Shown here: positions 14,204-31,872 of the stretch, one piece after another
Layout of the letters: every line of letters begins with the position of its first letter
Numbering within the stretch: position 1 is the stretch's first letter
Assembly: GCA_001825155.1 (NCBI GenBank)
Contig: MHVH01000006.1
Location: 70,939-120,238 of the forward strand
DNA length: 49,300 nt
DNA from: Candidatus Zambryskibacteria bacterium RIFCSPHIGHO2_01_FULL_46_25
GTDB lineage: Bacteria; Patescibacteriota; Minisyncoccia; Phycocordibacterales; Zambryskibacteraceae
Direction of reading: 5' to 3'
Position numbers and translations under genes: made by a program
The notes under the pieces: model-generated
What the model saw: the letters and a program-made list of their open reading frames with translations, nothing else
Database searches by the model: none
Told to the model about the DNA's origin: nothing

Positions 14204-14340
14204 TCATCACCCCATTTCTTTAGTAGTTATTAGTGGCAGGAACAGTCTTGATTGAACTACAAGTAACATACAGATTTTCTATCCCTAAGTCAACCACTTG
14301 TAATGGAGAATTCTGATTCTGTTTTGCTATAATTCATCTG

Positions 14341-15246
14341 ATGAAATCAGTCACCGAAGCTGGGGATTTGCAGGGCAAGCGCGTCTTGGTGCGCGTGGAT
14401 TGGAGTATTCCTGATTTAAAAAACGATTTTCAGATCAGAGCAACGCTTCCTACATTGGAGTATTTGGAGAAGATGGGAGCCAAAATTATTGTAGCCACAC
14501 ATTTGGAAAACGAGACCATCGAAGATTTAAAGAGATACCTGCCCGAAGGCGCGGAACTCTTACCGAATTTGCGCGATAATCCGGGCGAAGAAGCGAACTC
14601 CGAGGAGTTCGCGAAAGAATTGGCAAACAAAGCAGACATTTACGTCAACGAGGCCTTCTCTGTCTCGCATAGAGAACACGCGTCTATAGTTGGGGTGCCG
14701 AAATTTCTGCCAAGTTATGCCGGCATCGAGTTTATGGAAGAAATAGCTGCGCTTTCGAAAGCCTTCCACCCGCCCCATCCGTTTATTCTTCTCTTGGGCG
14801 GAGCAAAATTCGATACAAAACTGCCTCTTGTCCAGAAATTCGCCCAAATTGCGGACAAGGTCTTTATCGCCGGAGCCATGGCGGCGAAAGTGCCGGAAGT
14901 CATGACCCAAAATCCGAAAGTGGTATTGCCCGTGGGCGACATCGCGGCACTTGATGCCGACGACAACGTCATCAATCAGATTTCCGGAATAATTGCCGAT
15001 GCAAAATTTATTTTGTGGAACGGACCTCTGGGCAAATATGAGAAAGGCTATACGGAAGGGACGCTGAAGCTCGCGCGCCTTCTCGCCGAGAGCGGCAAAG
15101 AGGTGATAGTCGGCGGCGCGAATACTCTGGCGGCGATTAAAGAATTGAATATTTACGATAAATTCACTTTCGTCTCCACCGCCGGCGGCGCTATGCTCGA
15201 ATTCTTAGCCACGGAGACTCTGCCCGGCATTCAAGCTTTGGAATAA
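14341..15246 (+). CDS. pgk: Phosphoglycerate kinase (compact, 301 aa)
   Basis: GKRVLVRVD, LLPNLR, YVNEAFSVSHREHAS, LGGAK, WNGPLG, STAGGAMLEFL. Confidence 0.95.
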   Translation: MKSVTEAGDLQGKRVLVRVDWSIPDLKNDFQIRATLPTLEYLEKMGAKIIVATHLENETIEDLKRYLPEGAELLPNLRDNPGEEANSEEFAKELANKADIYVNEAFSVSHREHASIVGVPKFLPSYAGIEFMEEIAALSKAFHPPHPFILLLGGAKFDTKLPLVQKFAQIADKVFIAGAMAAKVPEVMTQNPKVVLPVGDIAALDADDNVINQISGIIADAKFILWNGPLGKYEKGYTEGTLKLARLLAESGKEVIVGGANTLAAIKELNIYDKFTFVSTAGGAMLEFLATETLPGIQALE

Positions 15247-15335
15247 AGTAATTTGAAAAATCGCGCTAGCATTTTCTGTTGAAAATGCACGCTCCACTCG
15301 CGCCGTCGCGCTCCGTGACGATTTTTCCTCTTACT

Positions 15336-15725
15336 TTATTCCAGCGCGGCACGAATCTTGTTCGCGTTTGTATCAAAATCTTTCGGATCGCCTGAAGCGT
15401 CATTTGGCCAGACCCAGATGTGGGCGTGGGGGACTTCGTCACCGAAGATTTGTGAGCGAATCATCTCTGTATTGAAAGCTTTTTGCTGCGCTAACGCAAC
15501 TTTTCTCACTACTTCGAAATACGCTCCAATCGATCCTTGCCCTCCCCCGGAGGGCAAGTCCCATACCCAGCGATAATGTTCCTTCGGAATAACTTGCACG
15601 TGGCCCACTCCGTGGGGATTAATATCCAAAAAGGCGAGGAAATTCTCATCTTCATACACTTTGTACGAAGGAATTTCGCCTTTTGCTATTTTGCAGAAAA
15701 TGCAATTCGTTTCATTCGTACTCAT
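15336..15725 (-). CDS. HIT family hydrolase
   Basis: CIFCKI, AFLDINP, GHVQVIPK, VPHAHIW (third His replaced by Trp). Confidence 0.9.
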   Translation of the reverse strand: MSTNETNCIFCKIAKGEIPSYKVYEDENFLAFLDINPHGVGHVQVIPKEHYRWVWDLPSGGGQGSIGAYFEVVRKVALAQQKAFNTEMIRSQIFGDEVPHAHIWVWPNDASGDPKDFDTNANKIRAALE

Positions 15726-15743
15726 TCGTATATTAGTATCGTG

Positions 15744-16637
15744 TTAGTAATTCTCGTAATCTACCAACTGCCCGTTCGTGTTATAAAGCTCAATCGTTTC
15801 ATACTTATCCGCCCACATCTCCCAACCTCGGCCGAGGAAGATTCTCCAGTTCTTGCTCTCGAATCCCTTGTCAGAGCTGTGATAAGCGAGACAGCCCCGG
15901 TAGCTGTAATGCTCTTTGATAAAGGCTCTGCAAACGCCGGAGAGACGCTTGCCGTCAATGCAGTCGTCACATCGTTCGCCGAATTTATCCTTGCCGCCGA
16001 AGACGGGAGTCTGGCAGGAAGGCATATAGGAGAGGAAGTCACGACACTCCCGATCCAGGTTCTCTACGCCCGGTTCATCGGATGGTCTGGGGCAGTTTCG
16101 CGAGAGAGAGGGGGTGAAGGCGTAATCCGGCAGAGCCTCGATATAGCCCGTGCATATATTCTCTTTGAAATTGGTAATCTTGTAAGGAGTTTGCACTCCG
16201 ACTGAACCGGTGGTGATGACAGCTCTACCGCCCGCCTCGAGGACGAAGGCTGGCAAGACTGCCACGTCTGCCGAGAAGCGTTGGAGGATATTGCCGCTAT
16301 AGTATGGACGCTCGTCCTTGCCATTCCTTAGCTGCCAGCCGGAGAGATTTACTGCGGAGCTGCCTGTGTTGTCTATAGTGATGTATTCCTCATACGATTG
16401 ATACGCGTAAGCCGCGTTGCCGGAGCCAATGGATATATATTGCGCTTGCGCGGCCGTGCGCGAAGAATCGGATGAAGGCGCATACAATAACCCCGAGGAT
16501 GAGAAAGGGCTTCCGTTCGGGTTGATGGAGCCGAGTTTGCGGTCGCCTGAGGAGGTGGAGAATACGATGACGAGAAGCACGGCAAGCACGACAATGCCCT
16601 GTATTACCCCTTGGCCGGTTTGTAGGTTTTTTCTCAT
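15744..16637 (-). CDS. Membrane-anchored lamin-tail-domain-like protein
   Basis: N-terminal TM; EYITIDNTGSSAVNLSGWQL and ETIELYNTNGQLVD are LTD-like motifs. Confidence 0.65.
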   Translation of the reverse strand: MRKNLQTGQGVIQGIVVLAVLLVIVFSTSSGDRKLGSINPNGSPFSSSGLLYAPSSDSSRTAAQAQYISIGSGNAAYAYQSYEEYITIDNTGSSAVNLSGWQLRNGKDERPYYSGNILQRFSADVAVLPAFVLEAGGRAVITTGSVGVQTPYKITNFKENICTGYIEALPDYAFTPSLSRNCPRPSDEPGVENLDRECRDFLSYMPSCQTPVFGGKDKFGERCDDCIDGKRLSGVCRAFIKEHYSYRGCLAYHSSDKGFESKNWRIFLGRGWEMWADKYETIELYNTNGQLVDYENY

Positions 16638-16667
16638 AAATCTATCTTACCATGCTAAAATACTCGA

Positions 16668-18305
16668 ATGCATTTCCCCGAACTCTTGGAAATTCTCCTA
16701 AAACAGAGAGGTATCTCGCCTGAAGAAAAGGAAAACTTTTTCAATCCGGACTATAATCGACTGCATGACGCGCTTTTGCTCCCAGACATGGAGAAGGCTC
16801 GCGATAGGGTGATAAGAGCGATGAAGGAAGATGAACATATTGTGGTTTTCTCGGACTACGATGCCGACGGCATACCGGGAGCGGTAGTGCTCTCGGACTT
16901 TTTTAACAGAGCGGGGTATAAAAATATTTCTTTCTACATTCCTCACAGGCACGACGAGGGCTTCGGCTTGAATGAGGACGCGATTGAAGAATGCGCGAAG
17001 AAGGGAGCCAATCTTATAATCACCGTGGATTGCGGTACGGCGGACGCAGAGGAATTGGCGCTTGCGAAAAAACTTGGCATGGATGTAATCGTGACGGACC
17101 ACCACGAGTCATCCGAATTGCCAAAAGCGTTTGCCATAGTGAATCCAAAACTCAAAGACTCCAAATATCCCTTCCGGGATATTTGTGGCGCGGCTATCGC
17201 CTTCAAACTGGTGCAGGCGATATTGGCGAAAGAAAAATCCGCCAGCTGGCGGATCGGCATCAAGGAGGGTATGGAGAAGTGGTCTCTCGACATGGTGGGC
17301 ATCGCCACTCTCTCGGACATGGTGCCGCTGGTGGGGGAGAACAGGATTTTCGCGCGCTTCGGCCTCGATGTATTGAGAAAGTCTCCGAGGCCGGGGCTCG
17401 CGGCGCTCTTTAACAAGCTTAATCTGGATAGGAAAACGCTTACAGAAGACGATGTCACCTTCATGATTACGCCAAGGATCAATGCCGCTTCCCGTATGGG
17501 CGTGCCGTATGACGCCTTCAAACTTCTTTCGACGAACGACCCCGAGGAAGCGGAAAAGCTGGTAGTTCATCTCGAGAAAATCAACAATGAACGCAAGGGG
17601 ATGGTGGCAAGCATGGTAAAAGAAGCGAAGAATCATCTCGAAAAGCGGGAAAGGGTCGGAGAAGTGATTGTGGTCGGCAATCCGGAGTGGAAGCCGTCTC
17701 TTGTGGGTCTTGTTTGCAACTCTTTGGTAGAGGCGTATGCAAAACCAGCTTTTGTGTGGGGTCGGGACGGAGATGGGGTGATTAAGGGTTCGTGCCGGTC
17801 GTACAACGGTTACAACTTATTTAAATTGATGGAGAGCGCGAAGGATTCCTTCATAGAATTTGGTGGGCACACGGGCGCGGGCGGATTCTCGGTCACTTTG
17901 GAAAATCTGGCAACACTGGAGGAGAAACTCTCAGATGCGCTTCAGGCGGTTTCTCCGCCACTTGGCGGTGAAACCGCCAAGTCCCTCGCGGTCACTCTTC
18001 CCGATATTTGCGAGGATCTTTGGAAAGTTGTTGCGCAATTCGCCCCGTTTGGAATTGGCAACGAGAAACCGGTTTTCAAAATCGCCAATGCGCCGATAAA
18101 ATCGCTTCGCCAGTTCGGCAAAGAGAATAATCACATGGAACTCGGCCTCGGCAATGGGCTCAAGGCCATCTCTTTCTTCTCTTCTCCTTCTTCTTACTCC
18201 ATACTTCCTACTGCTACCCAATGCACCCTCTACGCCCACATTGAAAAATCCTATTTCAGAAATCGCCCGGAGATACGTCTGAGGATAGTTGATATAGAAA
18301 GTTAA
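16668..18305 (+). CDS. recJ: Single-stranded-DNA exonuclease RecJ
   Basis: SDYDADG, ITVDCG, TDHH, PRINAASR, GSCRS, GGHTGAGG, APFGIGNEKP. Confidence 0.97.
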   Translation: MHFPELLEILLKQRGISPEEKENFFNPDYNRLHDALLLPDMEKARDRVIRAMKEDEHIVVFSDYDADGIPGAVVLSDFFNRAGYKNISFYIPHRHDEGFGLNEDAIEECAKKGANLIITVDCGTADAEELALAKKLGMDVIVTDHHESSELPKAFAIVNPKLKDSKYPFRDICGAAIAFKLVQAILAKEKSASWRIGIKEGMEKWSLDMVGIATLSDMVPLVGENRIFARFGLDVLRKSPRPGLAALFNKLNLDRKTLTEDDVTFMITPRINAASRMGVPYDAFKLLSTNDPEEAEKLVVHLEKINNERKGMVASMVKEAKNHLEKRERVGEVIVVGNPEWKPSLVGLVCNSLVEAYAKPAFVWGRDGDGVIKGSCRSYNGYNLFKLMESAKDSFIEFGGHTGAGGFSVTLENLATLEEKLSDALQAVSPPLGGETAKSLAVTLPDICEDLWKVVAQFAPFGIGNEKPVFKIANAPIKSLRQFGKENNHMELGLGNGLKAISFFSSPSSYSILPTATQCTLYAHIEKSYFRNRPEIRLRIVDIES

Positions 18306-18307
18306 AC

Positions 18308-18769
18308 TTAATTTAAATAATCTTCAATCTCTTTTATTCTTTTTAAATCGTCTTGTTCTTTTTTCTCTTTCCTAAGTTTTCCTTGAAGGCCGATTTCATA
18401 AATCTTTAAATGCTGATCGGGGGAGATATTGAAAAAATTGGCATTCTTTAACGAAGCCGGTTCTAATTTAAGCGGTTCTCCTATTAATGTTTCAATATCT
18501 TTCTTGTCTATGAATGAGACATAAACATCACTTCTGATTAATTCTCTTTCATGATCCGGATCAGTTCTAAATCCGTTTTTTAACAAAACTTCTTTGCATG
18601 TTAAAAAGTCCTCAGGCTTATTTATGATAAAGTCGATGTCATTGACGTCATTTTTACTATTCAACGCCAAATATAATCCCAAAGAACCATAAACAATCGG
18701 GCGGATACTCTCTTTGTTGAGTTTTTCTGTTATCTCTACGAAAGTATTCACTAATTGGGAATCAGACAT
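18308..18769 (-). CDS. Nucleotidyltransferase-superfamily hypothetical protein
   Basis: YGSLG ... DIDF (GS plus DxD); AT-rich. Confidence 0.55.
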   Translation of the reverse strand: MSDSQLVNTFVEITEKLNKESIRPIVYGSLGLYLALNSKNDVNDIDFIINKPEDFLTCKEVLLKNGFRTDPDHERELIRSDVYVSFIDKKDIETLIGEPLKLEPASLKNANFFNISPDQHLKIYEIGLQGKLRKEKKEQDDLKRIKEIEDYLN

Positions 18770-18832
18770 ATCCCTACTTTAGCTCATATTTCATAAAAAA
18801 TCCTTTAACTTGCCTATGCTAGACTTTAAGTA

Positions 18833-19309
18833 ATGATTACTATTTATACAGACGGAGCATCGAGAGGGAATCCCGGTCCGGGAGGCTGGGGCGCTATTAT
18901 CATAAACACCGTGAGGGTGGCGGAGCTTGGTGGCAGGGAAGAACATACGACCAACAACAGGATGGAACTCGTGGCCGCCATTAAGGCATTGGGCTTCGCC
19001 GGTAAACTCGACGATACTCCGATGGAAGTGCATACCGACTCCGAATACGTGATGAAAGGCATGACTTCCTGGATTACAGGCTGGCAGAAGAGGAACTGGC
19101 GTACCACTTCGAAAAAGCCTGTGTTAAATCAGGATTTGTGGAAAGAACTCTTGAGGGTGGCTGAAGGCAAGGCGATAGAATGGAAGCACGTTGCCGGCCA
19201 CTCTGGTCACAAGCCGAACGACCGATGCGATGAGATAGCAACTTCTTACGCGGACGATATTTCTACGCCTCTCTACAATGGACCGCGCGATTTTTACAAG
19301 CATCTTTAG
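18833..19309 (+). CDS. rnhA: Ribonuclease HI
   Basis: YTDGASRGNPGPGGWG, TTNNRMEL, TDSEYV, NQDLW, HVAGHSG, NDRCD. Confidence 0.97.
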   Translation: MITIYTDGASRGNPGPGGWGAIIINTVRVAELGGREEHTTNNRMELVAAIKALGFAGKLDDTPMEVHTDSEYVMKGMTSWITGWQKRNWRTTSKKPVLNQDLWKELLRVAEGKAIEWKHVAGHSGHKPNDRCDEIATSYADDISTPLYNGPRDFYKHL

Positions 19310-20729
19310 CTTCGCTTCGGGCATTCTCGTGGCGTCTTTTGTTTTCATCTCGCCTATTGTAAGCATTTTTCTCATTCTCGTCGCGTTTGCGGTACTTCTC
19401 GCGGAGAAAATTTATCAAAATCATATCGGCAAAGAAGTTTTGCTTGTCACTTTTGCTCTGATTGCTTTCGGATTGGGCACATTGCGCTACGCGGTGAAAG
19501 ATTTTCACGAGCTTGTCACGCCTTCGGGCGAGGGAATTGTCGTAAGCGAGCCAGAACAGCGGGATAACGCGACCCGGTTTGTACTGCGCGCGGACAATGG
19601 GGAAAAAGTTCTGGTGAGCGCCGGGTTATACGAAGAAATTTTATACGGAGACAGAGTGAGAATAGAAGGGAAGCTCGAAAGGCCCGGCATGTTAGAGGAT
19701 TTCGACTACGCGGCGTATCTGTCGAAAGACGATATCTACTGGACCATGGGCTTCGCCAAGACGGAGGTTGTCTTGAGCGGTCATGGCCAGCCTATAAAAG
19801 CAGGTCTGCTTAAAATTAAGAAAAGTTTCGTAAACAAGATTAGAGAAACCTTCGCCGAGCCATACGCGTCTCTGCTCGCGGGGCTCATTGTCGCCGGTCG
19901 TGACGCCATGCCGAAGAATATTCTTGAAGAATTCCGCCGCGCGGGCATTATTCATATCGTGGTGCTCTCGGGCTACAACATTACCATTATCGCCGATTTC
20001 CTGCGGAGAATGTTCGAGAAACTCTTCTTGCTTTCTTCGAGAACCGCCGTGCCGCAGCTTGCTTCGGGGGCGTCGATTGCAGGGATTCTACTTTTCGTCA
20101 TCATGACCGGAGCGGAAGCGACGGTGGTGCGAGCGGCTATCATGGTGCTTACGGTCATCGCGGCAAAAATGTTGGGGAGGAAGTACTCCGCGCCCCGCGC
20201 CTTGCTTCTGGCCGGCACGGTAATGCTCATTCATAATCCGAAAATACTTGTATTCGACGCTTCGTTCCAGCTATCTTTCCTCGCCACCCTCGCTCTTATC
20301 TATGTCGTGCCTGTTGTCGAAAAATATTTGGAATTTATAACCGAGAGATGGGAGTTGCGCATGACGGTCACGACAACTATAGCTACGCAAGTGACGGTGC
20401 TGCCACTCCTTGTCTACTCGGTAGGGGATTTCTCTCTCGTTTCACTGCCGGCAAACGTTCTGGTGCTCCTCATTATCCCTTACACCATGCTTCTCGGCTT
20501 TCTCGCCGCCGTCTCTGCTTATATTGGCGCGCTTGTCGCTATGCCTCTCTCGTATCTCGCGTATATTCTCCTCTGGTGGATACTCGGTGTCTCAAGCTTT
20601 CTCGGTAATCTGCCCTTCGCCACTATCGCGGTTCCGCACGTTTCCGCGTGGATGGTTATTTTGGTTTACTTGGTTCTAATTACTTTCGTGTGGCGCTGGC
20701 GAAGTTTTCCTCGCAAGATTGCCAGTTGA
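19278..20729 (+). CDS. comEC: ComEC competence protein, OB plus membrane (Competence) domain
   Basis: FRRAGIIHIVVLSGYNI, GAEATVVRAAIM, DASFQLSFLAT; multiple TM helices. Confidence 0.93.
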   Translation: MDRAIFTSIFSFASGILVASFVFISPIVSIFLILVAFAVLLAEKIYQNHIGKEVLLVTFALIAFGLGTLRYAVKDFHELVTPSGEGIVVSEPEQRDNATRFVLRADNGEKVLVSAGLYEEILYGDRVRIEGKLERPGMLEDFDYAAYLSKDDIYWTMGFAKTEVVLSGHGQPIKAGLLKIKKSFVNKIRETFAEPYASLLAGLIVAGRDAMPKNILEEFRRAGIIHIVVLSGYNITIIADFLRRMFEKLFLLSSRTAVPQLASGASIAGILLFVIMTGAEATVVRAAIMVLTVIAAKMLGRKYSAPRALLLAGTVMLIHNPKILVFDASFQLSFLATLALIYVVPVVEKYLEFITERWELRMTVTTTIATQVTVLPLLVYSVGDFSLVSLPANVLVLLIIPYTMLLGFLAAVSAYIGALVAMPLSYLAYILLWWILGVSSFLGNLPFATIAVPHVSAWMVILVYLVLITFVWRWRSFPRKIAS

Positions 20730-21303
20730 GATTCTCGAAGAAGTCTTCGACATATTGCTTCTTGCCGGAAGGCTGATAATCGGCGACGAAGGAGTGTTCC
20801 CACATGTCGAGAGCGAGTATGGGAGCAAGGCCTGTGAGATGACCCAAGTGCTGTTCATCTATCCAAGCGTTTAGAAGTCTCTGAGATTGCGGGTCATAGT
20901 AGAGCATTGCCCAGCCGATGCCGCGCGTAGTGGCGAGCGTCTTGAATCTCTTGAGCCATCTGTCGAACGTGCCCCATTCACCCTCAATTGCTTTCATCAA
21001 AGAGCCGTCCGCGGTGAGCGTAGTCGAACCACCTTCTAGGTGTGAAAAATAATATTCGTGATTCCTCATGCCATCGAACTCGAAGCCGAAGCGTCTGCCA
21101 ATCTCGCCTAAAGCATAGGCGTGTTCCTCGCCCGCTCCGACAAGTGGGCTCGAATCTTCAGAATATTCGTCAATCTTCGCTAATATGATATTGGTGTTCT
21201 TGACGTAGCCGGCATAGAGCTTGAGATGCTCCTCGACAGTTTTCTCCGAAATGCCTTTGAGCTTGGGGATATTGAATTTCTTTTCTTCGAATTGTTTCGC
21301 CAT
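20680..21303 (-). CDS. sod: Fe/Mn superoxide dismutase family protein
   Basis: EEHLKLYAGYV, NHEYYF, GIGWAML, LALDMWEHSF. Confidence 0.9.
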   Translation of the reverse strand: MAKQFEEKKFNIPKLKGISEKTVEEHLKLYAGYVKNTNIILAKIDEYSEDSSPLVGAGEEHAYALGEIGRRFGFEFDGMRNHEYYFSHLEGGSTTLTADGSLMKAIEGEWGTFDRWLKRFKTLATTRGIGWAMLYYDPQSQRLLNAWIDEQHLGHLTGLAPILALDMWEHSFVADYQPSGKKQYVEDFFENLNWQSCEENFASATRK

Positions 21304-21321
21304 ATATCGATTATATACTTA

Positions 21322-22194
21322 ATGACGATGGAATACATGCAAACCTTCCGTGCCAGATGGAAAGAGTGGCTGGCGGGGCTTCTCCTCCTGGCAAACATCC
21401 TTGTCTGGGCCGCTGTTCTGGGCAGAAGGGCGGATGGCAATCTCCGTGTCTATTTCCTCGATGTTGGACAGGGCGATGCCATACTCATAGACTCGCCTTC
21501 GCATGGCAGGGTGCTCATAGACGGTGGCAGGAATAGGACTGTGCTCTCGCAGTTGGGTAAAATTCTGCCTTTCGCTGACAAAAGAATTGACGCCATTATC
21601 GCCACGCATCCGGACGCGGATCACATAGGCGGTTTGCCAGAAGTGGTAAGGCGCTATGATGTCGGGCTTATCATCGAACCGGGCGTCGAGAGCGACAACG
21701 ATATAGATGACGAGCTCGCGAAAAGAGTAGATGAAAAAAATATTGAAACCGTGCTCGCGAGAAGGGGACAGGTTATAAACTTCGGTGATGGAGTAAGACT
21801 TACCATCCTTTTTCCGGACCGGGATGTCTCAAACTGGGAGACGAACGACGCTTCGGTGGTGGCAAGGCTCGAGTATGGGGAGTCGTCGTTCCTCTTCACC
21901 GGCGATTCGCCGATTCGTATTGAAAATATTCTGCTTGGATTAAATAAACAAATTCTCGATACGGATGTTCTGAAAGCTGGGCACCACGGCTCGCGCACAT
22001 CCACCTCGCTTACCTTCGCCGAAGCTGTTTCTCCGGAATATGCCGTAATCTCCGCCGGCAAGGACAATACTTACGGCCATCCGCACAAAGAAGTTTTGAA
22101 TATTTTAGAAAAAGTCGGGGCAAAAATTCTATCGACGATAGATTCCGGCACCATCGAATTCGAAACGGATGGCAAAACTTTAAAAATTAAATGA
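21322..22194 (+). CDS. ComEC/Rec2 metallo-beta-lactamase domain protein (stand-alone)
   Basis: FLDVGQGDA, THPDADHIGG, LFTGD, KAGHHGS, NTYGHPH; start taken at ATG 21322. Confidence 0.92.
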   Translation: MTMEYMQTFRARWKEWLAGLLLLANILVWAAVLGRRADGNLRVYFLDVGQGDAILIDSPSHGRVLIDGGRNRTVLSQLGKILPFADKRIDAIIATHPDADHIGGLPEVVRRYDVGLIIEPGVESDNDIDDELAKRVDEKNIETVLARRGQVINFGDGVRLTILFPDRDVSNWETNDASVVARLEYGESSFLFTGDSPIRIENILLGLNKQILDTDVLKAGHHGSRTSTSLTFAEAVSPEYAVISAGKDNTYGHPHKEVLNILEKVGAKILSTIDSGTIEFETDGKTLKIK

Positions 22195-22235
22195 GGAAGG
22201 CGCTGCCGCGTACGCGGCAGCGCCCAGGTTCTGCA

Positions 22236-22589
22236 TCACGGCTTGTGCTCCGCGACACCATTGTCCGGGTGGCGCTTGATCCAGAGGATGAAGTGGATTA
22301 ATCGGAGTCTCGAGCAGCGGCGAAGCAATGCCCCGCGCACCATTCCCGCGTAGACATCGTCGACACTGATTTCTGGGCAAGTGCCGAGATCGATGATGAA
22401 CACGAGAGGTACGAGGTTCACCGAGAGTTCGACTTCCTCGCGCGTGAGAATCTTGGCTTCGAGCAGGATGTCATCAGGCTTGTATGGACTGAACTCGGCC
22501 AGGATACGGACGATGTCTTCCTTGTGAACCTTGAGCGCCTCGCGTTCAGCGAAGGCGTTGAACGGCAGAGTGGCGTGAATGTGAGGCAT
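22236..22589 (-). CDS. Hypothetical protein (begins Met-Pro; tautomerase-like fold possible)
   Basis: SD AAGGAG before ATG 22589 (MPHIHATLP); perfect palindrome 22199-22224 downstream. Confidence 0.6.
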   Translation of the reverse strand: MPHIHATLPFNAFAEREALKVHKEDIVRILAEFSPYKPDDILLEAKILTREEVELSVNLVPLVFIIDLGTCPEISVDDVYAGMVRGALLRRCSRLRLIHFILWIKRHPDNGVAEHKP

Positions 22590-22649
22590 GAATTCTCCTT
22601 TCTGTCTGTTTTCTGCCGCCCAAATTACCACTTCCACCTCACCGCGTCA

Positions 22650-22687
22650 AATTCGAAACGGATGGGAAGGTCCTCCAGGTAAAATAG
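22650..22687 (+). pseudogene. Duplicated 3' end of the ComEC-MBL gene
   Basis: Encodes FETDGKVLQVK* versus FETDGKTLKIK* at the end of 21322..22194; AATTCGAAACGGATGG is identical at 22157 and 22650. Confidence 0.8.
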
Positions 22688-22718
22688 TCCACAGCTAATA
22701 ATGATTGGTATTCATACA

Positions 22719-22754
22719 TACGTTATAATTTCACTGTGGTGAGCTAATAACGTA
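22719..22754. repeat. 36-bp palindromic direct repeat A1 (left flank of PaaX-like gene 1)
   Basis: TACGTTATAA-TTTCACTGTGGTGAGC-TAATAACGTA; 32/36 identical to 23349-23384. Confidence 0.9.
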
Positions 22755-23320
22755 TGGGTAAACTGGAGCAACAAAGCAGAAAAAGAAGCAAGAGGAAACA
22801 TTTGCAGCAAATTATTTTAGCTACGGTAGCCGGTGCCGGTATTTTGGGTATTGGCCTCCTGGCTCCAAACGTGTTAGGGGCTATGGCGAAACTCGGTATT
22901 ATTCCAAATAGGAGGCAAAAAGAATATGTTAGTTCTTCCGCGAGCAAGATGGTTAAGAAGGGTCTTATGAGATTTAATGGAAAATTTTATGAACTTACCA
23001 TGGCCGGCCAAGAAAGGCTTCGCAGATGGGAATTTAATCAATTCAAATTCGAAAGACCGAAAAAATGGGATAAAAAATGGCGAGTGATTATTTTCGACAT
23101 ACCAGATAAAAAGAGAAAGGAGCGCGATCAGATAAGAACCCTTTTTAAGTCCGCCGGGTTTTATCTGTTACAAGAAAGTGTTTGGGTCTATCCTTATGAC
23201 TGCGAAGATATCATTGCACTATTGAAAACTGATTTCGGGGTCGGGAAAAATCTTCTCTATTTAATTGTTGAAGAGTTGGAAAACGATCGATATCTTAGAG
23301 ACGAATTCGACCTTGTCTGA
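22754..23320 (+). CDS. PaaX-like protein (winged helix plus Cas2-like domain)
   Basis: YELTMAG, KKWDKKWRVIIFDIPDKKRKERDQIR, GFYLLQESVWVYPYDC. Confidence 0.85.
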   Translation: MGKLEQQSRKRSKRKHLQQIILATVAGAGILGIGLLAPNVLGAMAKLGIIPNRRQKEYVSSSASKMVKKGLMRFNGKFYELTMAGQERLRRWEFNQFKFERPKKWDKKWRVIIFDIPDKKRKERDQIRTLFKSAGFYLLQESVWVYPYDCEDIIALLKTDFGVGKNLLYLIVEELENDRYLRDEFDLV

Positions 23321-23348
23321 AATTTCTTCTACTATATAAATTATTGTG

Positions 23349-23384
23349 TACGTTATTATCTCACTGTGGTGAGTTTATAACGTA
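23349..23384. repeat. 36-bp palindromic direct repeat A2 (right flank of PaaX-like gene 1)
   Basis: TACGTTATTA-TCTCACTGTGGTGAGT-TTATAACGTA. Confidence 0.9.
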
Positions 23385-23432
23385 TTAGAAATATATGGTC
23401 GCGGAGCCGGAACGTTCCGGCTCTTCTTTTTA

Positions 23433-23675
23433 TTAAATAACCCCTGTTTTCTTTAAGACAGAATGCGCGCCGCGCTTGGCGATAGTCTTCCAGCCCTTGG
23501 TTGAGAGGGTGAGGACGAGAGTTTTCTTGAGTTCCGGTACGTAAAGGCGCTTCTTCTGGAGGTTGGGGTACTTGCGTACCATGCCGGTGGGGTTGAATTG
23601 GGTAGCACGAGTCCTGTTGGAGTAGCCGCCTCCAATTCTTGAGCCCTTCTTGGTTACCGCGCAAATTCTTGCCAT
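23433..23675 (-). CDS. rpmB: 50S ribosomal protein bL28
   Basis: MARICAVTKK ... RKYPNLQKKRLYVPEL ... LSTKGWKTI. Confidence 0.9.
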   Translation of the reverse strand: MARICAVTKKGSRIGGGYSNRTRATQFNPTGMVRKYPNLQKKRLYVPELKKTLVLTLSTKGWKTIAKRGAHSVLKKTGVI

Positions 23676-23720
23676 TAGGGCATTAGACTAACATACTTGC
23701 TATAATTCGTCTAATTGAAC

Positions 23721-24338
23721 ATGGACCTTCCTTTCCAAATCGCCATTCTCATCATGTCGGTCGTCATTCACGAGGTCTCGCATGGCTATGCCGCAAGCTA
23801 CCTGGGCGACGATACCGCCCGTTGGCAGGGAAGGCTGACCCTAAACCCCTTTAAGCATCTCGACCTTGTGGGTTCTTTCCTCGTGCCGGTTGTGGCCTAC
23901 ATGACGGCCGGATTCATCTTCGGCTGGGCGAAGCCTGTGCCGTATAACCCTTACAACTTGCGCCCTGGTCGGTGGTCCGAGGCCATAGTCGCCGGAGCCG
24001 GGCCTGTATCCAACATATTCCTCGCTATCGTCTTCGGACTCATACTGCGTGCGGCTACCGCCAGCGGGGCAAGCTGGGCGAACGAATCCTTCGTATCCAT
24101 TACGGCCATAATCGTCTTCATCAACATTGTTTTGGCAATCTTCAACCTCGTACCCATACCGCCGCTTGATGGGTCGAAGCTCCTTTTCGCCATCTTTCCC
24201 GAGAATTCGCTCCGGCTCAGACAGTTTTTTGAAAAGTATGGGCTTATACTGGTGCTCTTCTTCATCTTCTTCCTGTGGCAGTACCTCTTCCCTTTAATTG
24301 TCCTTATTTTCAAGCTTATTACGGGAATCTCGTTTTAA
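23721..24338 (+). CDS. Site-2 protease family (peptidase M50)
   Basis: HEVSH, GRLTLNP, GWAKPVP, AGPVSN, FNLVPIPPLDGSK. Confidence 0.93.
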   Translation: MDLPFQIAILIMSVVIHEVSHGYAASYLGDDTARWQGRLTLNPFKHLDLVGSFLVPVVAYMTAGFIFGWAKPVPYNPYNLRPGRWSEAIVAGAGPVSNIFLAIVFGLILRAATASGASWANESFVSITAIIVFINIVLAIFNLVPIPPLDGSKLLFAIFPENSLRLRQFFEKYGLILVLFFIFFLWQYLFPLIVLIFKLITGISF

Positions 24339-24342
24339 AGTA

Positions 24343-24379
24343 TTGACAAACTCGACCATTGGGTGTATGATATAAAAAG
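24343..24379 (+). promoter_or_regulatory. sigma70 promoter, shared TTGGGTGTATGATA module
   Basis: TTGACA-17-TATGAT; 24359-24379 is identical to 47661-47681. Confidence 0.8.
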
Positions 24380-24388
24380 AGGTATCCC

Positions 24389-24496
24389 ATGATACACTGG
24401 ACAGAGGGCTGGGATGAGTCTTTCTGGTACTGGGTTGCCGGCACGGTCGCGGTTCTCATTGTTTTCATACTCGTGTGCCGGCATTTCGTACCGTAA
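24389..24496 (+). CDS. Small single-TM protein, 35 aa (not in the ORF track)
   Basis: SD GAGG; [35 protein letters not shown]; lies between its own promoter and a hairpin at 24501-24531 followed by a T-rich tract. Confidence 0.65.
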
Positions 24497-24587
24497 TACC
24501 CTGGGCCCCTCGCAACGCGCGGTGGGTCCAGTTTGCTTTTTATGGCTTCATTTAGTACAGTATTTGTCTCCAAAGGGAGAGTTTTTA

Positions 24588-25004
24588 ATGTCTACAATCA
24601 ACCAGCTGGTCAAGAGAAAAAGGAAGAAGCTCCGCCGCAAGTCGAAGTCGGTTGCTTTGACGCGCGCTTTCAATACCCTTAAAAACAGGCCGGTCTACTT
24701 CAACTCCCCGTTCAAGCGAGGCGTGGCTACCAAGGTTACAACCAAGACTCCTAGGAAGCCGAACTCCGCCGTTCGCAAGATTGCTCGTGTTCGTCTGACC
24801 AATGGCATGGAGGTGACTGCATATATCCCGGGTATTGGCCACAACCTGCAAGAGCACTCGGTGGTACTTATCCGCGGAGGACTGGTGAGAGATGTTGGTC
24901 TCCGCTACTCTGTCGTACGAGGCGTTCTTGACGCAACCGGCGTAGAAAGCCGAAGACAAGCCAGAAGCCAGTATGGAGCGAAGAAGCCAAAAAAAGTTAA
25001 ATAA
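24588..25004 (+). CDS. rpsL: 30S ribosomal protein uS12
   Basis: [39 protein letters not shown]. Confidence 0.98.
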
Positions 25005-25030
25005 GTTGTATAAGTTGAATAAGCAAGAAA

Positions 25031-25501
25031 ATGCGACGCAAACTCAAGACTAAGCCGAAAATAGAACCCGATTACCTCTACGAATCCGAGAGGGTGACTA
25101 AATTTGTAAATTACGTCATGGAAGAGGGGAAGAAGAATACCGCGCGCAAAGTCGTGTACCAGGCACTCGATTTGATAAAAGAAAAGACGAAGAATGCCAA
25201 CCCGCTTGAAGTGTTCGAAACTGCTTTGAAGAACACCGGCCCCTTGATGGAAGTGCGCAGCCGCCGAGTCGGAGGCGCGAACTACCAGGTGCCGAGAGAG
25301 GTGCGTCCCGAACGTCGCCAGTTTCTCTCCATGAAGTGGATTATAAATGCCGCCCGCAATAAAAAAGGCAAAGCTATGCACGAAAAATTGGCGGAAGAGA
25401 TTATCGCCGCGTCAAACAACGAAGGAGAGGCCATAAAGAAGAGAGAAACCATGCATAAGATGGCTGAAGCCAACAAGGCCTTCGCGCATTTTGCCTGGTA
25501 G
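25031..25501 (+). CDS. rpsG: 30S ribosomal protein uS7
   Basis: EVRSRRVGGANYQVP, HKMAEANKAFAHF. Confidence 0.98.
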   Translation: MRRKLKTKPKIEPDYLYESERVTKFVNYVMEEGKKNTARKVVYQALDLIKEKTKNANPLEVFETALKNTGPLMEVRSRRVGGANYQVPREVRPERRQFLSMKWIINAARNKKGKAMHEKLAEEIIAASNNEGEAIKKRETMHKMAEANKAFAHFAW

Positions 25502-25593
25502 ATACCAATTTACAAATGATCCAAATTATACAAATGGCAACGAATTATTCGCAGGCATTAGCAGATTGGTGTAATTCGTAGATTAGTACTTAT

Positions 25594-27783
25594 ATGCAAA
25601 GAGACTATCCATTGGAGAAGGTGCGCAACTTTGGAATCATAGCGCACATTGACGCGGGGAAGACCACCACTTCCGAACGCGTGCTTTTCTATACCGGTTC
25701 GCAACATAAAATCGGCGAAGTGCACGAGGGAGACACTACCACCGACTGGATGGAGCAGGAGCGCGAGCGCGGCATCACCATTACCGCGGCGGCTATCACT
25801 TGCTTCTGGCAACCGACATATAAAGGCCCGGCCTTAAGTACTGATTCCCAAGGCCGGGCCTTGGATGCGGACAAATACCGCTTCAATATTATCGACACGC
25901 CGGGACACATCGACTTCACCGTGGAGGTGAAGAGGTCACTCCGAGTGCTCGACGGCGCGGTAGTTGTCTTCGACGGTGTGGCGGGAGTAGAGCCACAAAG
26001 CGAGACTAATTGGCGTTACGCGGAAGAAGCACTTGTGCCGAGAATCTGTTTCGTGAACAAGCTCGACCGCACGGGGGCATCTTTCGAGCGCTCGTACCAA
26101 TCTATTTTGAGTCGGCTTTCGAAGAAGGCGGTGCGCATGCAAATTCCCATCGGCGAAGAAGAGAAACACGAAGGGGTCGTCGACCTTTTGAAGATGAAGG
26201 CCTTCTACTTCGAAGGCGAGATGGGCAACAAGGTTATCGAGAAAGAAATTCCCGAGAATCTCAAAGCCGATGCCACGAAGTATCGCGCCGAACTTGTCGA
26301 GCGCATTGTTGAGAATGATGAAACTTTGATGAACGATTATCTCGAGGGTAAGCAGGCATCGCTTACAGATTTGAAGCGTGTCATGAGGAAGGCGGTGATA
26401 GAGAACAAAATTTTCCCGGTTCTCGCTGGTTCCGCGCTTAAGAACAAGGGCGTCCAGCTTGTGCTCGACGCGGTGGTTGATTACTTGCCTTCACCTCTCG
26501 ACATCCCACCGATTAAAGGTACTCACCCTGTAACGGGCGAAGAAGTGGTGCGTCATGCTTCAGACGAAGAGCCCTTCGCGGCACTCGCCTTCAAACTCCA
26601 GGCGGACCCATTCGTGGGCCAGCTGACATTCTTCCGCGTATACTCCGGCACTATCGAGAGCGGCACTTATATTTATAATTCCACTACCGGCACCAAGGAA
26701 CGCCTCGGCCGTATCGTGCGCCTGCAGGCGGACAAGAGAGAAGAGGTGAAAAAAGTTTTTGCCGGAGAAATTGCCGCCGCCGTGGGTCTCAGGGACGCGA
26801 AAACTTCACACACTTTCTGCGATGAAGAGAACCCCATTGCTCTCGACCAGATTAAATTCCCCGAACCGGTCATATCTCTGCGTATCGAACCTAAGACCAA
26901 GGCAGACCAAGAGAAGATGGGCATGGCTCTTAAGCGCCTCTCGGATGAGGACCCGACATTCAAAATTAAATCCGACCAGGAAACTGGCGAGACCGTTATC
27001 ATGGGCATGGGTGAACTTCACCTGGAAATTATCGTGGACAGAATGAAGAGAGAATTCGGTGTCGAAGCAAATGTCGGCAAGCCGCAAGTTTCTTACAAAG
27101 AGACTATTCAGGGCGAAGCGGAAGTGGAGAACAAATATATCAAGCAGACCGGAGGCAAGGGACAATATGGGCACGTGAAGATTAAGATTAAGCCTCTGCC
27201 GGCTTATGACCCGGAGGAGAAGGTGCCGAAGAACGCGCATAGGGAACCCGGATTCGAATTCGTCGACGCCATCAAGGGAGGCGTTATCCCGCAGGAATTT
27301 ATCCCCGCCGTGGAGAAGGGCGTGCGCGAGGCTATGGACCGTGGCATTCTCGCCGGCTACAAGATGACAGACATTTCCTGCGAGCTCAACTACGGCTCCT
27401 ACCACGACGTTGACTCATCGGAAATTGCCTACAAGATTGCCGCTTCGCAAGCTTTCCAGGAAGCGGCAAAGAAGGCGAAGCCTGTGCTCCTCGAGCCTAT
27501 TATGAAAGTGGAAGTAGTGGTACCGGAGAAATTCATGGGCGACATTACCGGCAATTTGAGTGGCAAGCGCGGCCAGATAGAAGCAATGGAAGACCGCGGT
27601 GATCTCAAGGTAGTGAAGGCGAAAGTGCCTCTCTCCGAGATGTTCGGCTATGTGACCAATCTTCGCTCAATGACCGAGGGCCGAGGTTCCTCGACCATGG
27701 AGTTCGACCACTACGCTGTGGTGCCGCAGAATGTGGCGGCTACCATCATCGAAGCGAGAACCGGCTCGATGGCGAGGGTTTAG
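25594..27783 (+). CDS. fusA: Elongation factor G
   Basis: AHIDAGKTT, ERGITI, DTPGH, NKLD, GMGELHLEI, SYHDVDSS. Confidence 0.99.
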   Translation: MQRDYPLEKVRNFGIIAHIDAGKTTTSERVLFYTGSQHKIGEVHEGDTTTDWMEQERERGITITAAAITCFWQPTYKGPALSTDSQGRALDADKYRFNIIDTPGHIDFTVEVKRSLRVLDGAVVVFDGVAGVEPQSETNWRYAEEALVPRICFVNKLDRTGASFERSYQSILSRLSKKAVRMQIPIGEEEKHEGVVDLLKMKAFYFEGEMGNKVIEKEIPENLKADATKYRAELVERIVENDETLMNDYLEGKQASLTDLKRVMRKAVIENKIFPVLAGSALKNKGVQLVLDAVVDYLPSPLDIPPIKGTHPVTGEEVVRHASDEEPFAALAFKLQADPFVGQLTFFRVYSGTIESGTYIYNSTTGTKERLGRIVRLQADKREEVKKVFAGEIAAAVGLRDAKTSHTFCDEENPIALDQIKFPEPVISLRIEPKTKADQEKMGMALKRLSDEDPTFKIKSDQETGETVIMGMGELHLEIIVDRMKREFGVEANVGKPQVSYKETIQGEAEVENKYIKQTGGKGQYGHVKIKIKPLPAYDPEEKVPKNAHREPGFEFVDAIKGGVIPQEFIPAVEKGVREAMDRGILAGYKMTDISCELNYGSYHDVDSSEIAYKIAASQAFQEAAKKAKPVLLEPIMKVEVVVPEKFMGDITGNLSGKRGQIEAMEDRGDLKVVKAKVPLSEMFGYVTNLRSMTEGRGSSTMEFDHYAVVPQNVAATIIEARTGSMARV
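25823..25862. repeat. In-frame palindromic element inside fusA
   Basis: AAGGCCCGGCCTT-AAGTACTGATTCCC-AAGGCCGGGCCTT (perfect 13-bp stem, 14-nt loop). Confidence 0.8.
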
Positions 27784-27855
27784 TATTGCCTTTTTATAAA
27801 AATTGGTTCATAGTGCGGCAGGACACGGGCGAGAGCCCTTACAAGGAGCAGTTCA

Positions 27856-28257
27856 GTGAAAAGACTTCTCATGTTTTTCGTCGTCTACTCTATAACAGCG
27901 ACCGTCATCGGCGTGCATTTCGTCCGTAAGAACCATGCATGGCAACAGTCAGCAGAGGTCACGGTGGACCTCTTCCAGAACGCGAGGCTGGGGCGCATCG
28001 AGAAGATGGAGGTTACGCCGGAAGTTTTCCGGTCCGAACTGATTACCGCTCGGATCTGGTCGCGCAGACTCCAAAACGAGCTCGAGATGGCCAAGAAGGA
28101 GAACGAGGCGTATCGGCTTCTGGCGAAGCAGTTCGCCACGACCGTAATGCCACCGCCATCACGAGGGCTCCTCGTGATGGAACCGATTTCGGACGCCGAG
28201 TATGAGCCCAGCGGGCTCAAGTTCTACATGGAGGAATGTCTGGGACGCAAGTTCTAG
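27856..28257 (+). CDS. Hypothetical membrane-anchored protein
   Basis: SD AAGGAG plus GTG; N-terminal TM and coiled-coil-like segment; hairpin at 28276-28303 downstream. Confidence 0.65.
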   Translation: MKRLLMFFVVYSITATVIGVHFVRKNHAWQQSAEVTVDLFQNARLGRIEKMEVTPEVFRSELITARIWSRRLQNELEMAKKENEAYRLLAKQFATTVMPPPSRGLLVMEPISDAEYEPSGLKFYMEECLGRKF

Positions 28258-28347
28258 GCGCTCCGGCGCTTCACAAAGGGCGTCCCACCGCAGGGACGCC
28301 CTTGACTTTTTAATGGTTTGGGTGTATAGTAGAGATTGGAGGGTTCG

Positions 28348-28524
28348 ATGCCACAGTATCAGCTGTTTTTCACCGCCGCGTCGGACTTCGCGGCGCGGCA
28401 GATCGTCGGCGAGGTCGAAGGGATTGGCGGGGTCGTTCACATGGAGAGGGTGGCCGACAGGCCCCTGACTCTCCTGGAGATCGAAGAGATCATCCAGAAG
28501 CAGCGGGAGGAGGTCGCGAAGTAA
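28348..28524 (+). CDS. Small hypothetical protein, 58 aa
   Basis: TTGACT(28302)-17-TATAGT promoter, SD GGAGG, ATG 28348, hairpin plus T-rich tract downstream. Confidence 0.6.
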   Translation: MPQYQLFFTAASDFAARQIVGEVEGIGGVVHMERVADRPLTLLEIEEIIQKQREEVAK

Positions 28525-28764
28525 CCTCGCGGGCGGGAGGAGGAGGCGTCCAAGTGACGCCCCTTTACTTTTATACAGGGGTTGTATAATATGGCGCTTA
28601 CGTCTATAGGTGCCATGCTCTTTGATCCGCCAGCTGGCGGACTCTCAATAAGGTATAGCACTTTTATGACGCGCTTATGAATCAAAGAAGGCAATGGTTC
28701 TCGCGCGCTTTCTTTTTTTCAGAAGAAGTTACTAACTACTATCTACTAATAACTAATTACTAAT

Positions 28765-29955
<1,191 letters not shown>

Positions 29956-30062
29956 TAATTTTGGAAGCACCAAATCCTAAACCCTAAACTCTAAATAATT
30001 TTCTAAATTTAAAATTTGGAATTTGTTTAGGATTTAGAAATTAGGATTTAGAAATTACTCGA

Positions 30063-30431
30063 ATGGCAACAAAAGTACCTAAAAAAACAAAAACGTCATC
30101 GAAAGCCAAGGCGGCTGAAGAAGCGACTGCCAAGTTGCGCATTCGAGTCATGGCGTACGAGTCGAAGATACTCGACCTCTCGGTCAAGCAGATAATCGAC
30201 ACCGCTCTCCGCTATGACGCGAAAATCCAAGGCCCGATTCCTTTGCCGACAGAGATAAAGAAATATACGGTGAACCGCGCGGCGTTCGTATACAAGAATG
30301 CGCGAGAACAGTTCGAGATGCGAATACACAAGCGGCTCATCGATATTCTGAATCCCAGCGCCAAGGTCATAGAAGCTCTGACTAACATGTCGCTTCCTTC
30401 TGGCGTGAACATAGATGTGAAAATGATATAG
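30063..30431 (+). CDS. rpsJ: 30S ribosomal protein uS10
   Basis: LRIRV, GPIPLPT, REQFEMRIHKRLIDI. Confidence 0.97.
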   Translation: MATKVPKKTKTSSKAKAAEEATAKLRIRVMAYESKILDLSVKQIIDTALRYDAKIQGPIPLPTEIKKYTVNRAAFVYKNAREQFEMRIHKRLIDILNPSAKVIEALTNMSLPSGVNIDVKMI

Positions 30432-30439
30432 AAATAGAA

Positions 30440-30889
30440 ATGAAAGCCAAGAAAGTAAACATGACGCAAATATTCGACGAATCAGGGGAAGTTTTCCCCG
30501 TGACTATCGTCGTGTTACAGAACCAAGGGGAGGGCTTAGATGCCGATTCCCAAGCCCTCCCCTTGGCTGTAGGAGACATGATTACTGTTTCCGGCATTTC
30601 TAAAGGCAAGGGTTTCCAGGGGGTGGTCAAACGCCACAAGTTCGAGGGAGGCCGTCGCTCCCACGGCCAAAAGCATTCCGAGCGCGAGGCCGGCTCCATT
30701 GGCGGAGGCGGACGAGCGGGAGGACGCGTAGCCAAAGGTATGCGCATGGCCGGTCGGATGGGCGGAGAAAAAGTTACGATAAAGAACCTAAGAGTAATAA
30801 GAGTCGAGCCGGAAACTAGGGAAATCTTCATCCGGGGAGCTATTCCCGGCAGACGTGGAACGAAAGTAGAAGTAAGAAGTATGAAGTAA
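30440..30889 (+). CDS. rplC: 50S ribosomal protein uL3 (short, 149 aa)
   Basis: MTQIFD, PVT, SKGKGFQGVVKRH, GMRMAGRMG, GAIPG. Confidence 0.93.
   Translation: MKAKKVNMTQIFDESGEVFPVTIVVLQNQGEGLDADSQALPLAVGDMITVSGISKGKGFQGVVKRHKFEGGRRSHGQKHSEREAGSIGGGGRAGGRVAKGMRMAGRMGGEKVTIKNLRVIRVEPETREIFIRGAIPGRRGTKVEVRSMK
30523..30566. repeat. In-frame palindromic element inside rplC
   Basis: CCAAGGGGAGGGCTT-AGATGCCGATTCCC-AAGCCCTCCCCTTGG (perfect 15-bp stem, 14-nt loop). Confidence 0.8.
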
Positions 30890-30896
30890 GAAGAAT

Positions 30897-31577: not shown

Positions 31578-31578
31578 C

Positions 31579-31872
31579 ATGCAGAAGCTAAATATAAAAC
31601 CGAATAATGTTCTCAAGGGACCTCGTATTACCGAGAAGGCCGCCATTTCCGCCGACAAGCACAATGTCTACGTTTTCGAGGTGGAGAAATTTGCTACTAA
31701 GGCATCTATCATCGCTTCCATCAGAGATGCTTACAAGGTAGTTCCGACAGATGTTCGCGTGGTAAACATTCCGGCGAGAAAAGTTATTGTTAGAGGCAAG
31801 AGAGGCGTGAAAAGTGCGGTTAAGAAAGCGTATGTCGCGCTCAAAAAAGGCGATAAGATAGAACTTCTATAA
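31579..31872 (+). CDS. rplW: 50S ribosomal protein uL23
   Basis: PRITEKA, YVFEV, KKAYVAL; start ATG 31579. Confidence 0.95.
   Translation: MQKLNIKPNNVLKGPRITEKAAISADKHNVYVFEVEKFATKASIIASIRDAYKVVPTDVRVVNIPARKVIVRGKRGVKSAVKKAYVALKKGDKIELL

Follow-up and report, generated by a model that had tools for sequence, protein, structure and literature searches.

PaaX, the repressor of phenylacetate catabolism in E. coli, binds palindromic operators, and looping repressors such as lambda CI (OL/OR), LacI (O1/O2/O3) and GalR combine a promoter operator with a second cognate operator some hundred bp away, the repressor gene of lambda lying between two operator regions. Genes flanked by palindromes are also found in REPtrons, where the genes of REP-associated tyrosine transposases (RAYT, Y1 transposases) are surrounded by their own repetitive extragenic palindromes (REP), which also build mosaic arrays of the type of bacterial interspersed mosaic elements. 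The recombination sites loxP, dif and FRT are ~34–36 bp long and consist of inverted arms with a centre that is common to partner sites, the crossover spacer being asymmetric and 6–8 bp long, and in the Cas1-Cas2 complexes of CRISPR adaptation Cas2 dimers lie along ~23 bp of duplex DNA. Here we describe two single-gene cassettes, A and B, from a stretch of 49,300 nt of Candidatus Zambryskibacteria bacterium RIFCSPHIGHO2_01_FULL_46_25 (referred to as the window), in which a gene for a small protein with a predicted winged helix and a Cas2-like domain is placed between two copies of a 36-bp palindrome. Parcubacteria and other bacteria of the candidate phyla radiation (CPR) have tiny genomes that are regarded as poor in regulators; the genome containing the window (G000; 581,808 bp in 7 contigs, 96% complete) devotes eight genes to this one family despite its small size.

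On balance we regard the encoded protein as probably an autorepressor with two cognate operators that bracket its own gene, and as a member of a specificity-diversified family whose sites also occur elsewhere in the genome. We infer that the protein would bind its own two-fold symmetric 36-bp site, probably in the form of a symmetric dimer, and that binding at the upstream copy, which spans the −10-like hexamer and the start codon as well as the predicted point of transcription initiation, would switch off transcription of its own gene. The downstream copy would then be a second cognate operator maintained by selection, most likely bound jointly with the upstream copy in a loop of ~0.6 kb, or alternatively a roadblock insulating the gene from neighbouring transcription. 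Unlike the lambda CI, LacI and GalR systems the cassettes are single-gene units with one site per end, and this layout is seen across a whole specificity-diversified family. No description of such a layout was found by full-text searches of a library with few subscription journals.

A gene between two copies of its own palindrome

A first-pass annotation of the window had described a 36-bp site touching the ATG of the first gene with a similar copy behind its stop codon, as well as a paralogue with the same architecture and related arms, and both descriptions could be confirmed (Table 1). In a repeat search the sites of cassette A appeared as a repeat of 37 nt at 89% identity with a spacing of 630, those of cassette B as one of 39 nt at 92% identity with a spacing of 646. 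The consensus TACRTWATWA-N16-TWATWRYGTA was found with up to two mismatches at exactly four places in the 49.3 kb, which are the four cassette sites (8 matches counting both strands vs 0.00 expected from 100 shuffles).

Table 1: Features of cassettes A and B in the window.
Feature	Position	Strand	Remarks
Cassette A, upstream 36-bp palindromic site TACGTTATAATTTCACTGTGGTGAGCTAATAACGTA	22719-22754		last base is the A of the gene A start codon; proposed operator
TATAAT, −10-like hexamer	22724-22729	+	in the left arm of the cassette A upstream site
Gene A, 188 aa	22754-23320	+	predicted winged helix-turn-helix (~3-95) and Cas2-like domain (~103-173)
Cassette A, downstream 36-bp site	23349-23384		28 nt past the gene A stop; 32/36 identical to the upstream copy; TATAAT decayed to TATTAT
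Intrinsic-terminator-like hairpin (23403-23424) and T run	23403-23434	+	just past the cassette A downstream site
Cassette B, upstream site	43643-43678		15 nt ahead of the gene B ATG
TAGAAT, putative −10-like hexamer	43636-43641	-	between the cassette B upstream site and the ATG; read from the sequence
Gene B, 189 aa	43058-43627	-	paralogue of gene A
Cassette B, downstream site	42997-43032		25 nt past the gene B stop; 33/36 identical to the upstream copy

Using tblastn we identified eight full-length paralogues in G000 (44–69% identical) and one remote member, and each of the eight full-length genes is flanked on both sides by a palindrome with a gene-specific core. The family is present in 25 of 41 related genomes with 0–9 copies each. 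From the 69 distinct full-length homologues collected, 64 possess the flanking pair by our main criterion, and in three others one copy overlaps the end of an open reading frame (ORF), which brings the number with a pair to 67. The first-pass annotation had made its proposal dependent on paired repeats around the other paralogues as well, and nearly all of them do have such repeats. In a wider set from public collections, 31 of whose 80 loci repeat DNA already counted, the gene's own upstream and downstream 36-mers are at least 28/36 identical in 59 of 79 usable loci, compared with 0 of 79 when the upstream flank was paired with the downstream flank of another gene. The record titles of this set name Zambryski-, Kaiser-, Taylor-, Adler- and Ryanbacteria as well as Paceibacterota, and at least 566 family matches were obtained from the public genome collection. 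The remote member (G000:C5:154959-155456; ~32–35% identity over ~95 aa) shows no flanking pair; a relative (L040) carries a full cassette at this position, and the remote member may be a decayed copy.

The anatomy of the site was analyzed on the 64 upstream/downstream pairs. The entire 36-mer is two-fold symmetric, core included, with 16-nt arms that are 83–88% complementary around 4 nt. The copies match at 81% even when compared in the inverted sense, and since the whole 36-mer is palindromic, 'direct' and 'inverted' orientation can barely be distinguished. Little or no variation is seen in TAC at positions 1–3, GTA at positions 34–36, C16 and G21, and the arms are of either the TACGTTATAA or the TACATAATAA type. 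Identity between the two copies of one gene is high at positions 1–7, 13–22 and 30–36 and lower at 8–12 and 23–29; the cores agree in 13.1 of 16 positions within a gene vs 7.8 of 16 between genes, and in 43 of the 64 pairs the best match to the upstream copy is the gene's own downstream copy. In 46 of 64 cases the last base of the upstream site is the A of the start codon, and TATAAT is present at site positions 5–12 in 36 upstream vs 9 downstream copies. In the subfamily of the cassette B type, the upstream site immediately precedes a −10-like hexamer, and the leader is very short. With its TATAAT and its contact to the ATG the upstream copy thus resembles an operator over −10 box, start site and start codon.

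The 16-bp core had previously been taken for a spacer between inverted arms, in analogy to the tyrosine-recombinase sites dif and loxP. In such a case a host recombinase of the Xer type would bind the arms and the core would be the matching crossover spacer, and indeed the cassette sites share with loxP, dif and FRT a length of ~34–36 bp, inverted arms and a centre common to both partners, with conserved outer arms and a variable middle. The symmetry found here runs through the core as well, and a spacer reading of it is not upheld: unlike the centre of these known sites that of the cassettes comprises 16 bp and is palindromic, with the invariant C16 and G21 that a crossover spacer does not need.

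A palindrome of this length might also act as a hairpin in RNA or single-stranded DNA, be it a terminator, an mRNA stabiliser, or a REP-like or attC-like element, independently of the encoded protein. Each 36-mer is foldable into a long hairpin through its complementary arms, and because the terminator-like hairpin of cassette A lies 3' of the downstream site, this site would fall within the gene A transcript, that is, in the 3' untranslated region ahead of the terminator. However, the linker positions 9–13 pair only about 50% of the time. Stem mismatches of the G.T and A.C kind amount to 48 vs 38 in the upstream and 42 vs 37 in the downstream copies, so there is no G.T excess and no sense-strand G.U bias, and mismatches of other, non-wobble kinds predominate (160 upstream, 145 downstream). 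T-rich sequence follows only 10 of the 64 downstream copies, and Rfam gave no match at E up to 1 for window positions 22500–23600. With TATAAT in the left arm transcription would begin near the site centre, so that the upstream copy would presumably not be transcribed whole. The half-paired linker, the mostly non-wobble mismatches, the few T tails and the missing Rfam match fit better to a double-stranded symmetric binding site, and we consider hairpins very unlikely.

The protein and its relation to the site

The proteins encoded by genes A and B are 48% identical, and both match the Pfam domain PaaX_M (PF20803, 'Cas2-like') above the cut-off with E-values of 1.6e-20 (A) and 9.8e-18 (B). Both also pass the NCBIfam cas2 model TIGR01573 (26.4 and 28.0 bits vs a cut-off of 24.5), whereas they stay below the cut-off of the Pfam Cas2 family PF09827 (19.9 and 22.6 vs 23.8) and far below that of the PaaX equivalog TIGR02277 (37.6 and 39.7 bits vs 264.55). 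Neither protein matches the Pfam PaaX_C domain, gene A's product ending at residue 188, or the Pfam PaaX N-terminal domain at E up to 0.1, and profile searches with Pfam and NCBIfam revealed no recombinase, transposase or HUH/Y1 (PF01797) domain in either of them. The AlphaFold model (63 homologues, pLDDT 81) shows a winged helix-turn-helix with helices at 3–28, 33–46 and 55–68, a wing at 72–81 and a further helix at 83–95, followed by a beta-alpha-beta-beta-alpha-beta Cas2-like domain at 109–172. Residues 20–45 had been considered as a membrane helix, which was dropped as the model puts them in the winged-helix domain. The best Foldseek match of the model is the E. coli PaaX repressor (8a39, E 9e-5, 181 columns) with Cas2 chains following lower in the ranking, and a sequence search of solved structures returned only 3kfw (E 0.0087). 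D115, located at the end of strand 1 at the position of the catalytic Asp of Cas2, is invariant in 63 of 63 sequences, and the Q-S-V motif is likewise retained. Prediction of a homodimer gave a score of 0.25 vs a mark of 0.42, which has no bearing on the dimer state.

According to the model the protein is a winged helix joined to a Cas2-like domain, a PaaX relative without the PaaX C-terminal domain. It has the PaaX_M domain and, judged from the model, the preceding winged helix in common with PaaX but is, at 188 aa, a protein without the C-terminal domain that keeps the Cas2 Asp and the Q-S-V motif. Its setting is different too, with 36-bp sites paired around the gene, eight paralogues in a genome of 0.58 Mb and no phenylacetate genes implied. 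The ferredoxin-like domain connects it to Cas2, as does the invariant Asp, and a Cas2 dimer lying along a duplex resembles the role at the central core that we propose for the cassette protein. Unlike Cas2 it is fused to a winged helix and is not recognized by the Pfam Cas2 model at its cut-off, Cas1 (PF01867) is absent from the 96%-complete genome by profile search, and the repeats lie 0.6 kb apart around a gene and do not form a spacer array as in CRISPR. As genes of the family pass the NCBI cas2 model, they may carry the label 'Cas2' in annotations of CRISPR-less genomes, which would mislead CRISPR surveys of CPR bacteria. Passages of a preprint (bioRxiv 10.1101/2024.03.08.584096) deal with missing cas1-cas2 and do not concern the cassette layout.

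In order to compare the conservation of the parts we used 79 pairs of cassettes whose members come from different species but share a syntenic position. The mean identity was 0.78 for the upstream site, 0.73 for the downstream site and 0.72 for the proteins, compared with 0.34–0.41 for the 20-nt flanks. Judged from these alignments the downstream copy is not a remnant in decay, and both copies appear to be under selection.

Site and protein also tend to vary together. Tyr58 of the predicted recognition helix goes along with a G at site position 4 (both 32, neither 28, Tyr58 only 4, G only 0), and closely related proteins with differing cores differ most at residues of the Cas2-like domain, namely 125, 128, 132, 136, 138 and 141. 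Two homologues at the position of the C5:16938 paralogue (L005 and L006) are mosaics. Their N-terminal halves are 77 and 74% identical to gene A vs 62 and 59% to the C5:16938 paralogue, their C-terminal halves 81 and 84% identical to the C5:16938 paralogue vs 72 and 76% to gene A, and they carry the core of the C5:16938 paralogue. This suggests that they arose by recombination between paralogues or alleles. The data are suggestive, but only suggestive, of a division in which the winged helix would read the conserved outer arms of either type and the Cas2-like domain would set the specificity for the variable core. If true, the Cas2 fold would here take on a function new to it. As the order of own site, gene and own site is fixed, every paralogue represents a ready-made protein-site pair, and with dozens of natural specificity variants the DNA-recognition code becomes directly readable and testable.

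For a census of the sites we counted matches to a loose pattern (up to two mismatches) and to a control pattern in 37 genomes of the genus, and the site counts track the gene counts. G000 has 37 site hits, 10 control hits and 8 genes, G006 has 27, 2 and 9, and G003 has 25, 5 and 7, while six genomes without a family gene (G002, G007, G009, G017, G022 and G023) show 2–6 site hits vs 0–5 control hits. These background counts in the absence of the protein family also speak against hairpins acting on their own. An Xer-type recombinase (PF00589) is encoded in all five gene-less genomes checked, and G000 has one such gene (C5:51725-52258). The presence of this gene and of single sites at syntenic places (see below) would be in line with Xer sites. 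Yet gene-less genomes keep Xer and have only background site counts, the letters of the centre track the cassette's own protein and not the Xer gene, and the downstream copy has been conserved over long vertical descent. The dif/loxP analogy is thus not supported, and we regard Xer sites as highly improbable. The other idea of the first-pass annotation, paired cognate operators around the gene, agrees best with the overlap of site, −10 hexamer and ATG, with the conservation of both copies, with residues that track the site and with sites that accompany the family only.

Occupied, single-site and empty positions

The 69 cassettes are found at ~24 syntenic positions, always intergenic, and within the genus 18 of 24 genomes are positive with 0–9 copies per genome. 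The protein tree implies at least 32 changes of position, although the topologies of this tree and of the rpoB tree, both reconstructed with FastTree, are weakly supported. We examined two positions with 30 loci each. Between the gene for a metallo-beta-lactamase (MBL)-fold protein and rpmB, the position of cassette A, the gene is present in nine loci, and in two loci (L220 and L222) a lone site with the same CACTGTGGTG core type occurs without a gene. Six loci there are empty and without a site, with neighbouring stop codons that abut or nearly do so (gap −4 to 33 nt), nine have other content and four were unresolved. At the position of the C5:16938 paralogue the gene is present in six loci, a single site in one (L232), 19 are empty without a site (gap 7–97 nt), none has other content and four were unresolved. 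In the rpoB tree, loci with the gene occur in a scattered manner in both main clades. With three states at one locus (occupied, single site, empty) gene gain and loss become traceable in uncultured bacteria. The MBL-fold gene is separated from cassette A by a 117-aa ORF without Pfam match (window 22236-22589, minus strand), which occurs only in G000 among the loci compared.

The first-pass annotation had also suggested a mobile single-gene cassette. According to this idea the block of site, gene and site moves, or formerly moved, the palindromes would be ends or recombination sites for its own protein and single sites would be footprints or landing sites, and autorepression could hold in addition. 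The patchy copy number within one genus, the many intergenic positions and position changes, the three states at the same loci with scattered occupancy, site counts that track gene counts and the invariant D115 at the position of the Cas2 catalytic Asp all favour it, as does the cassette-B position of one relative, which holds a cassette of another subfamily in opposite orientation (46% identity; neighbours 65–81%).

Several results speak against it. Among ~117 distinct cassettes, from collections with one genome per species, no near-identical ones were found in different contexts; the closest distinct pairs (85–89% nucleotide identity) share homologous upstream flanks, one pair even both flanks. 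Divergence between syntenic cassettes is similar to that between their neighbours (65–81% vs 61–85%), the protein has no recombinase or transposase domain and none of the 69 cassettes has a site that abuts another site. No cassette was found in 50,697 phage records, and IMG/VR gave one remote partial match only. Assembled Logan contigs of four of the 20 DNA sequencing runs identified, searched over window positions 14000–33000, contain no joint at the cassette ends and are uninformative either way as contigs drop rare variants; one nearby joint, from 22098 to 23914 (one contig, side 29), is off the site boundaries. Single sites can moreover result from ordinary deletion between the 36-bp direct repeats, which leaves exactly one such site. 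The single-repeat sites in relatives asked for by the earlier proposal were thus found, two at the cassette-A position and one elsewhere, as were repeat-free empty sites, whereas recently moved copies were not. We consider a mobile cassette unlikely, although it deserves to be kept in mind. The distribution fits cassettes that would be old, mostly inherited and often lost, sometimes with a single site left behind.

A more specific version would be a selfish Cas2-based element, in which a Cas2-like dimer lies along the 16-bp core as a ruler and the invariant Asp nicks or recombines the element's own ends. We regard this mechanism as improbable, and equally doubtful is the corresponding course of events, in which exit would produce the single-site footprints and re-entry beside existing sites the abutting arrays described below. 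If true, a Cas2-based mobile element in CPR bacteria would bear on the origin of the partnership between Cas2 and repeats.

Two further positions in G000 belong to this context. The 90-nt spacer at window 15246-15336 (C6:86184-86274) is the unoccupied counterpart of a position with a cassette in six of the loci first collected from relatives (L009, L011, L017, L038, L039 and L042), and no family palindrome remains in it. At G000:C4:46168-46619 a small, putatively GxxExxY/PD-(D/E)XK-like ORF stands between two conserved genes where four relatives (L018, L057, L058 and L060) have a cassette.

Sites apart from the family genes and other palindromes

Beyond the 16 sites that flank genes, G000 contains ~21 further ones. 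Some occupy promoters of other genes: sites are located 40–65 nt ahead of FtsQ-like and HisRS-like genes and 50 nt ahead of an MBL-fold gene, and another lies right at the beginning of a short ORF upstream of a SET-domain gene. A direct repeat of 58 nt, composed of 22 nt and a 36-bp site of the C5:190904 paralogue type and followed by a −10-like box, occurs at C5:58115-58172 and C5:58841-58898, so that a site-plus-promoter unit precedes each of the consecutive ORFs C5:58085 and C5:58762 (85 and 166 aa, both without Pfam match). In two relatives a family cassette takes the position of these repeats (L075, C5:57000-60000). In G013, which has a single family gene, five extra sites are of its own core type and ~15 of other types. 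With an autorepressor family some of the extra sites may be operators ahead of other genes and some leftovers after deletion of a gene between direct repeats.

Not all observations agree with autorepression from two cognate operators, and the following weigh against it. A scan with a sigma-70-type consensus found no −35 partner for the TATAAT of the cassette A upstream site. Looping, known for lambda CI, LacI and GalR, would here have to do without phasing, as the site-to-site spacing of 593–690 bp shows no helical periodicity (R ≤0.17, p ≥0.18). Covariation in independent pairs, of which few events exist, is not significant (2–3 concordant, 0–1 discordant), and neither is the avoidance of similar cores among paralogues of one genome (3.8% vs 6.0%, p 0.24). 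Approximately eight extra sites have a core without a cognate gene in the 96%-complete G000, and 4 of 13 extra-site loci in this genome are flanked by convergent gene ends, a setting in which a promoter would not be expected. Only 5 of 29 other genomes have sites upstream of rpoB, and the cores of these sites are different; the sites therefore do not represent a conserved regulatory target. Finally, 13 of the 21 extra sites are part of arrays in which two to three different units join without a gap (GTA|TAC), for which simple operators do not account. The autorepressor reading accounts neither for these arrays nor for sites located between convergent genes, nor for the many empty positions that have no repeat. 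The arrays hint at insertion beside existing units, as a mobile cassette would do it, and the several extra copies between convergent genes and near other palindrome families would suit hairpins.

Both CYTH-domain genes of G000 (L076, C5:215564-216121; L077, 117095-117664) have a family site 12–25 nt past their stop codon in a convergent intergenic region.

The cassettes share with REPtrons a gene flanked by its own ~36-bp palindrome type and scattered intergenic copies, some of them in mosaic arrays. Unlike REPtrons they encode no HUH/Y1 domain, their sites are not continuous hairpins, only ~20 extra copies exist and the upstream copy would double as a promoter. REP/RAYT-like systems are nevertheless present in G000, a point in favour of hairpins, with five Y1_Tnp (RAYT/IS200-like) matches (L113-L117), four of them above the family cut-off and all outside the cassettes. 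The Y1_Tnp gene on C4 (L117, C4:41851-45072; ~C4:43070-43790) is flanked, and apparently interrupted, by the palindrome CACTTGGAAACTSAGTTTCCAAGTG, which recurs on several contigs, and a third palindrome family, CACTTAGCTGTC..GACAGCTAAGTG, flanks the Y1_Tnp copy at C3:5845. From their sequences these genes and palindromes look like true REPtrons in a CPR genome.

Two other palindrome families were noticed in the genome. Members of an AT-centred intergenic family (..ACGATATATCGT.. / ..TTCGATATATCGAA.. / CACTATGATATATCATAGTG) are located at window 34960-34991, C5:66923, C5:215466, C1:24537 and C3:638, and at C5:66860-66990 and C5:215460-215552 they adjoin 36-bp sites and a REP-like unit in clusters between convergent genes. 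Palindromes of the form GGCCCGGCCTT..N..AAGGCCGGGCC / GGCAAGGCCTTGG.. occur at window 25825-25860 and 30527-30562 and at a total of at least eight places in the genome.

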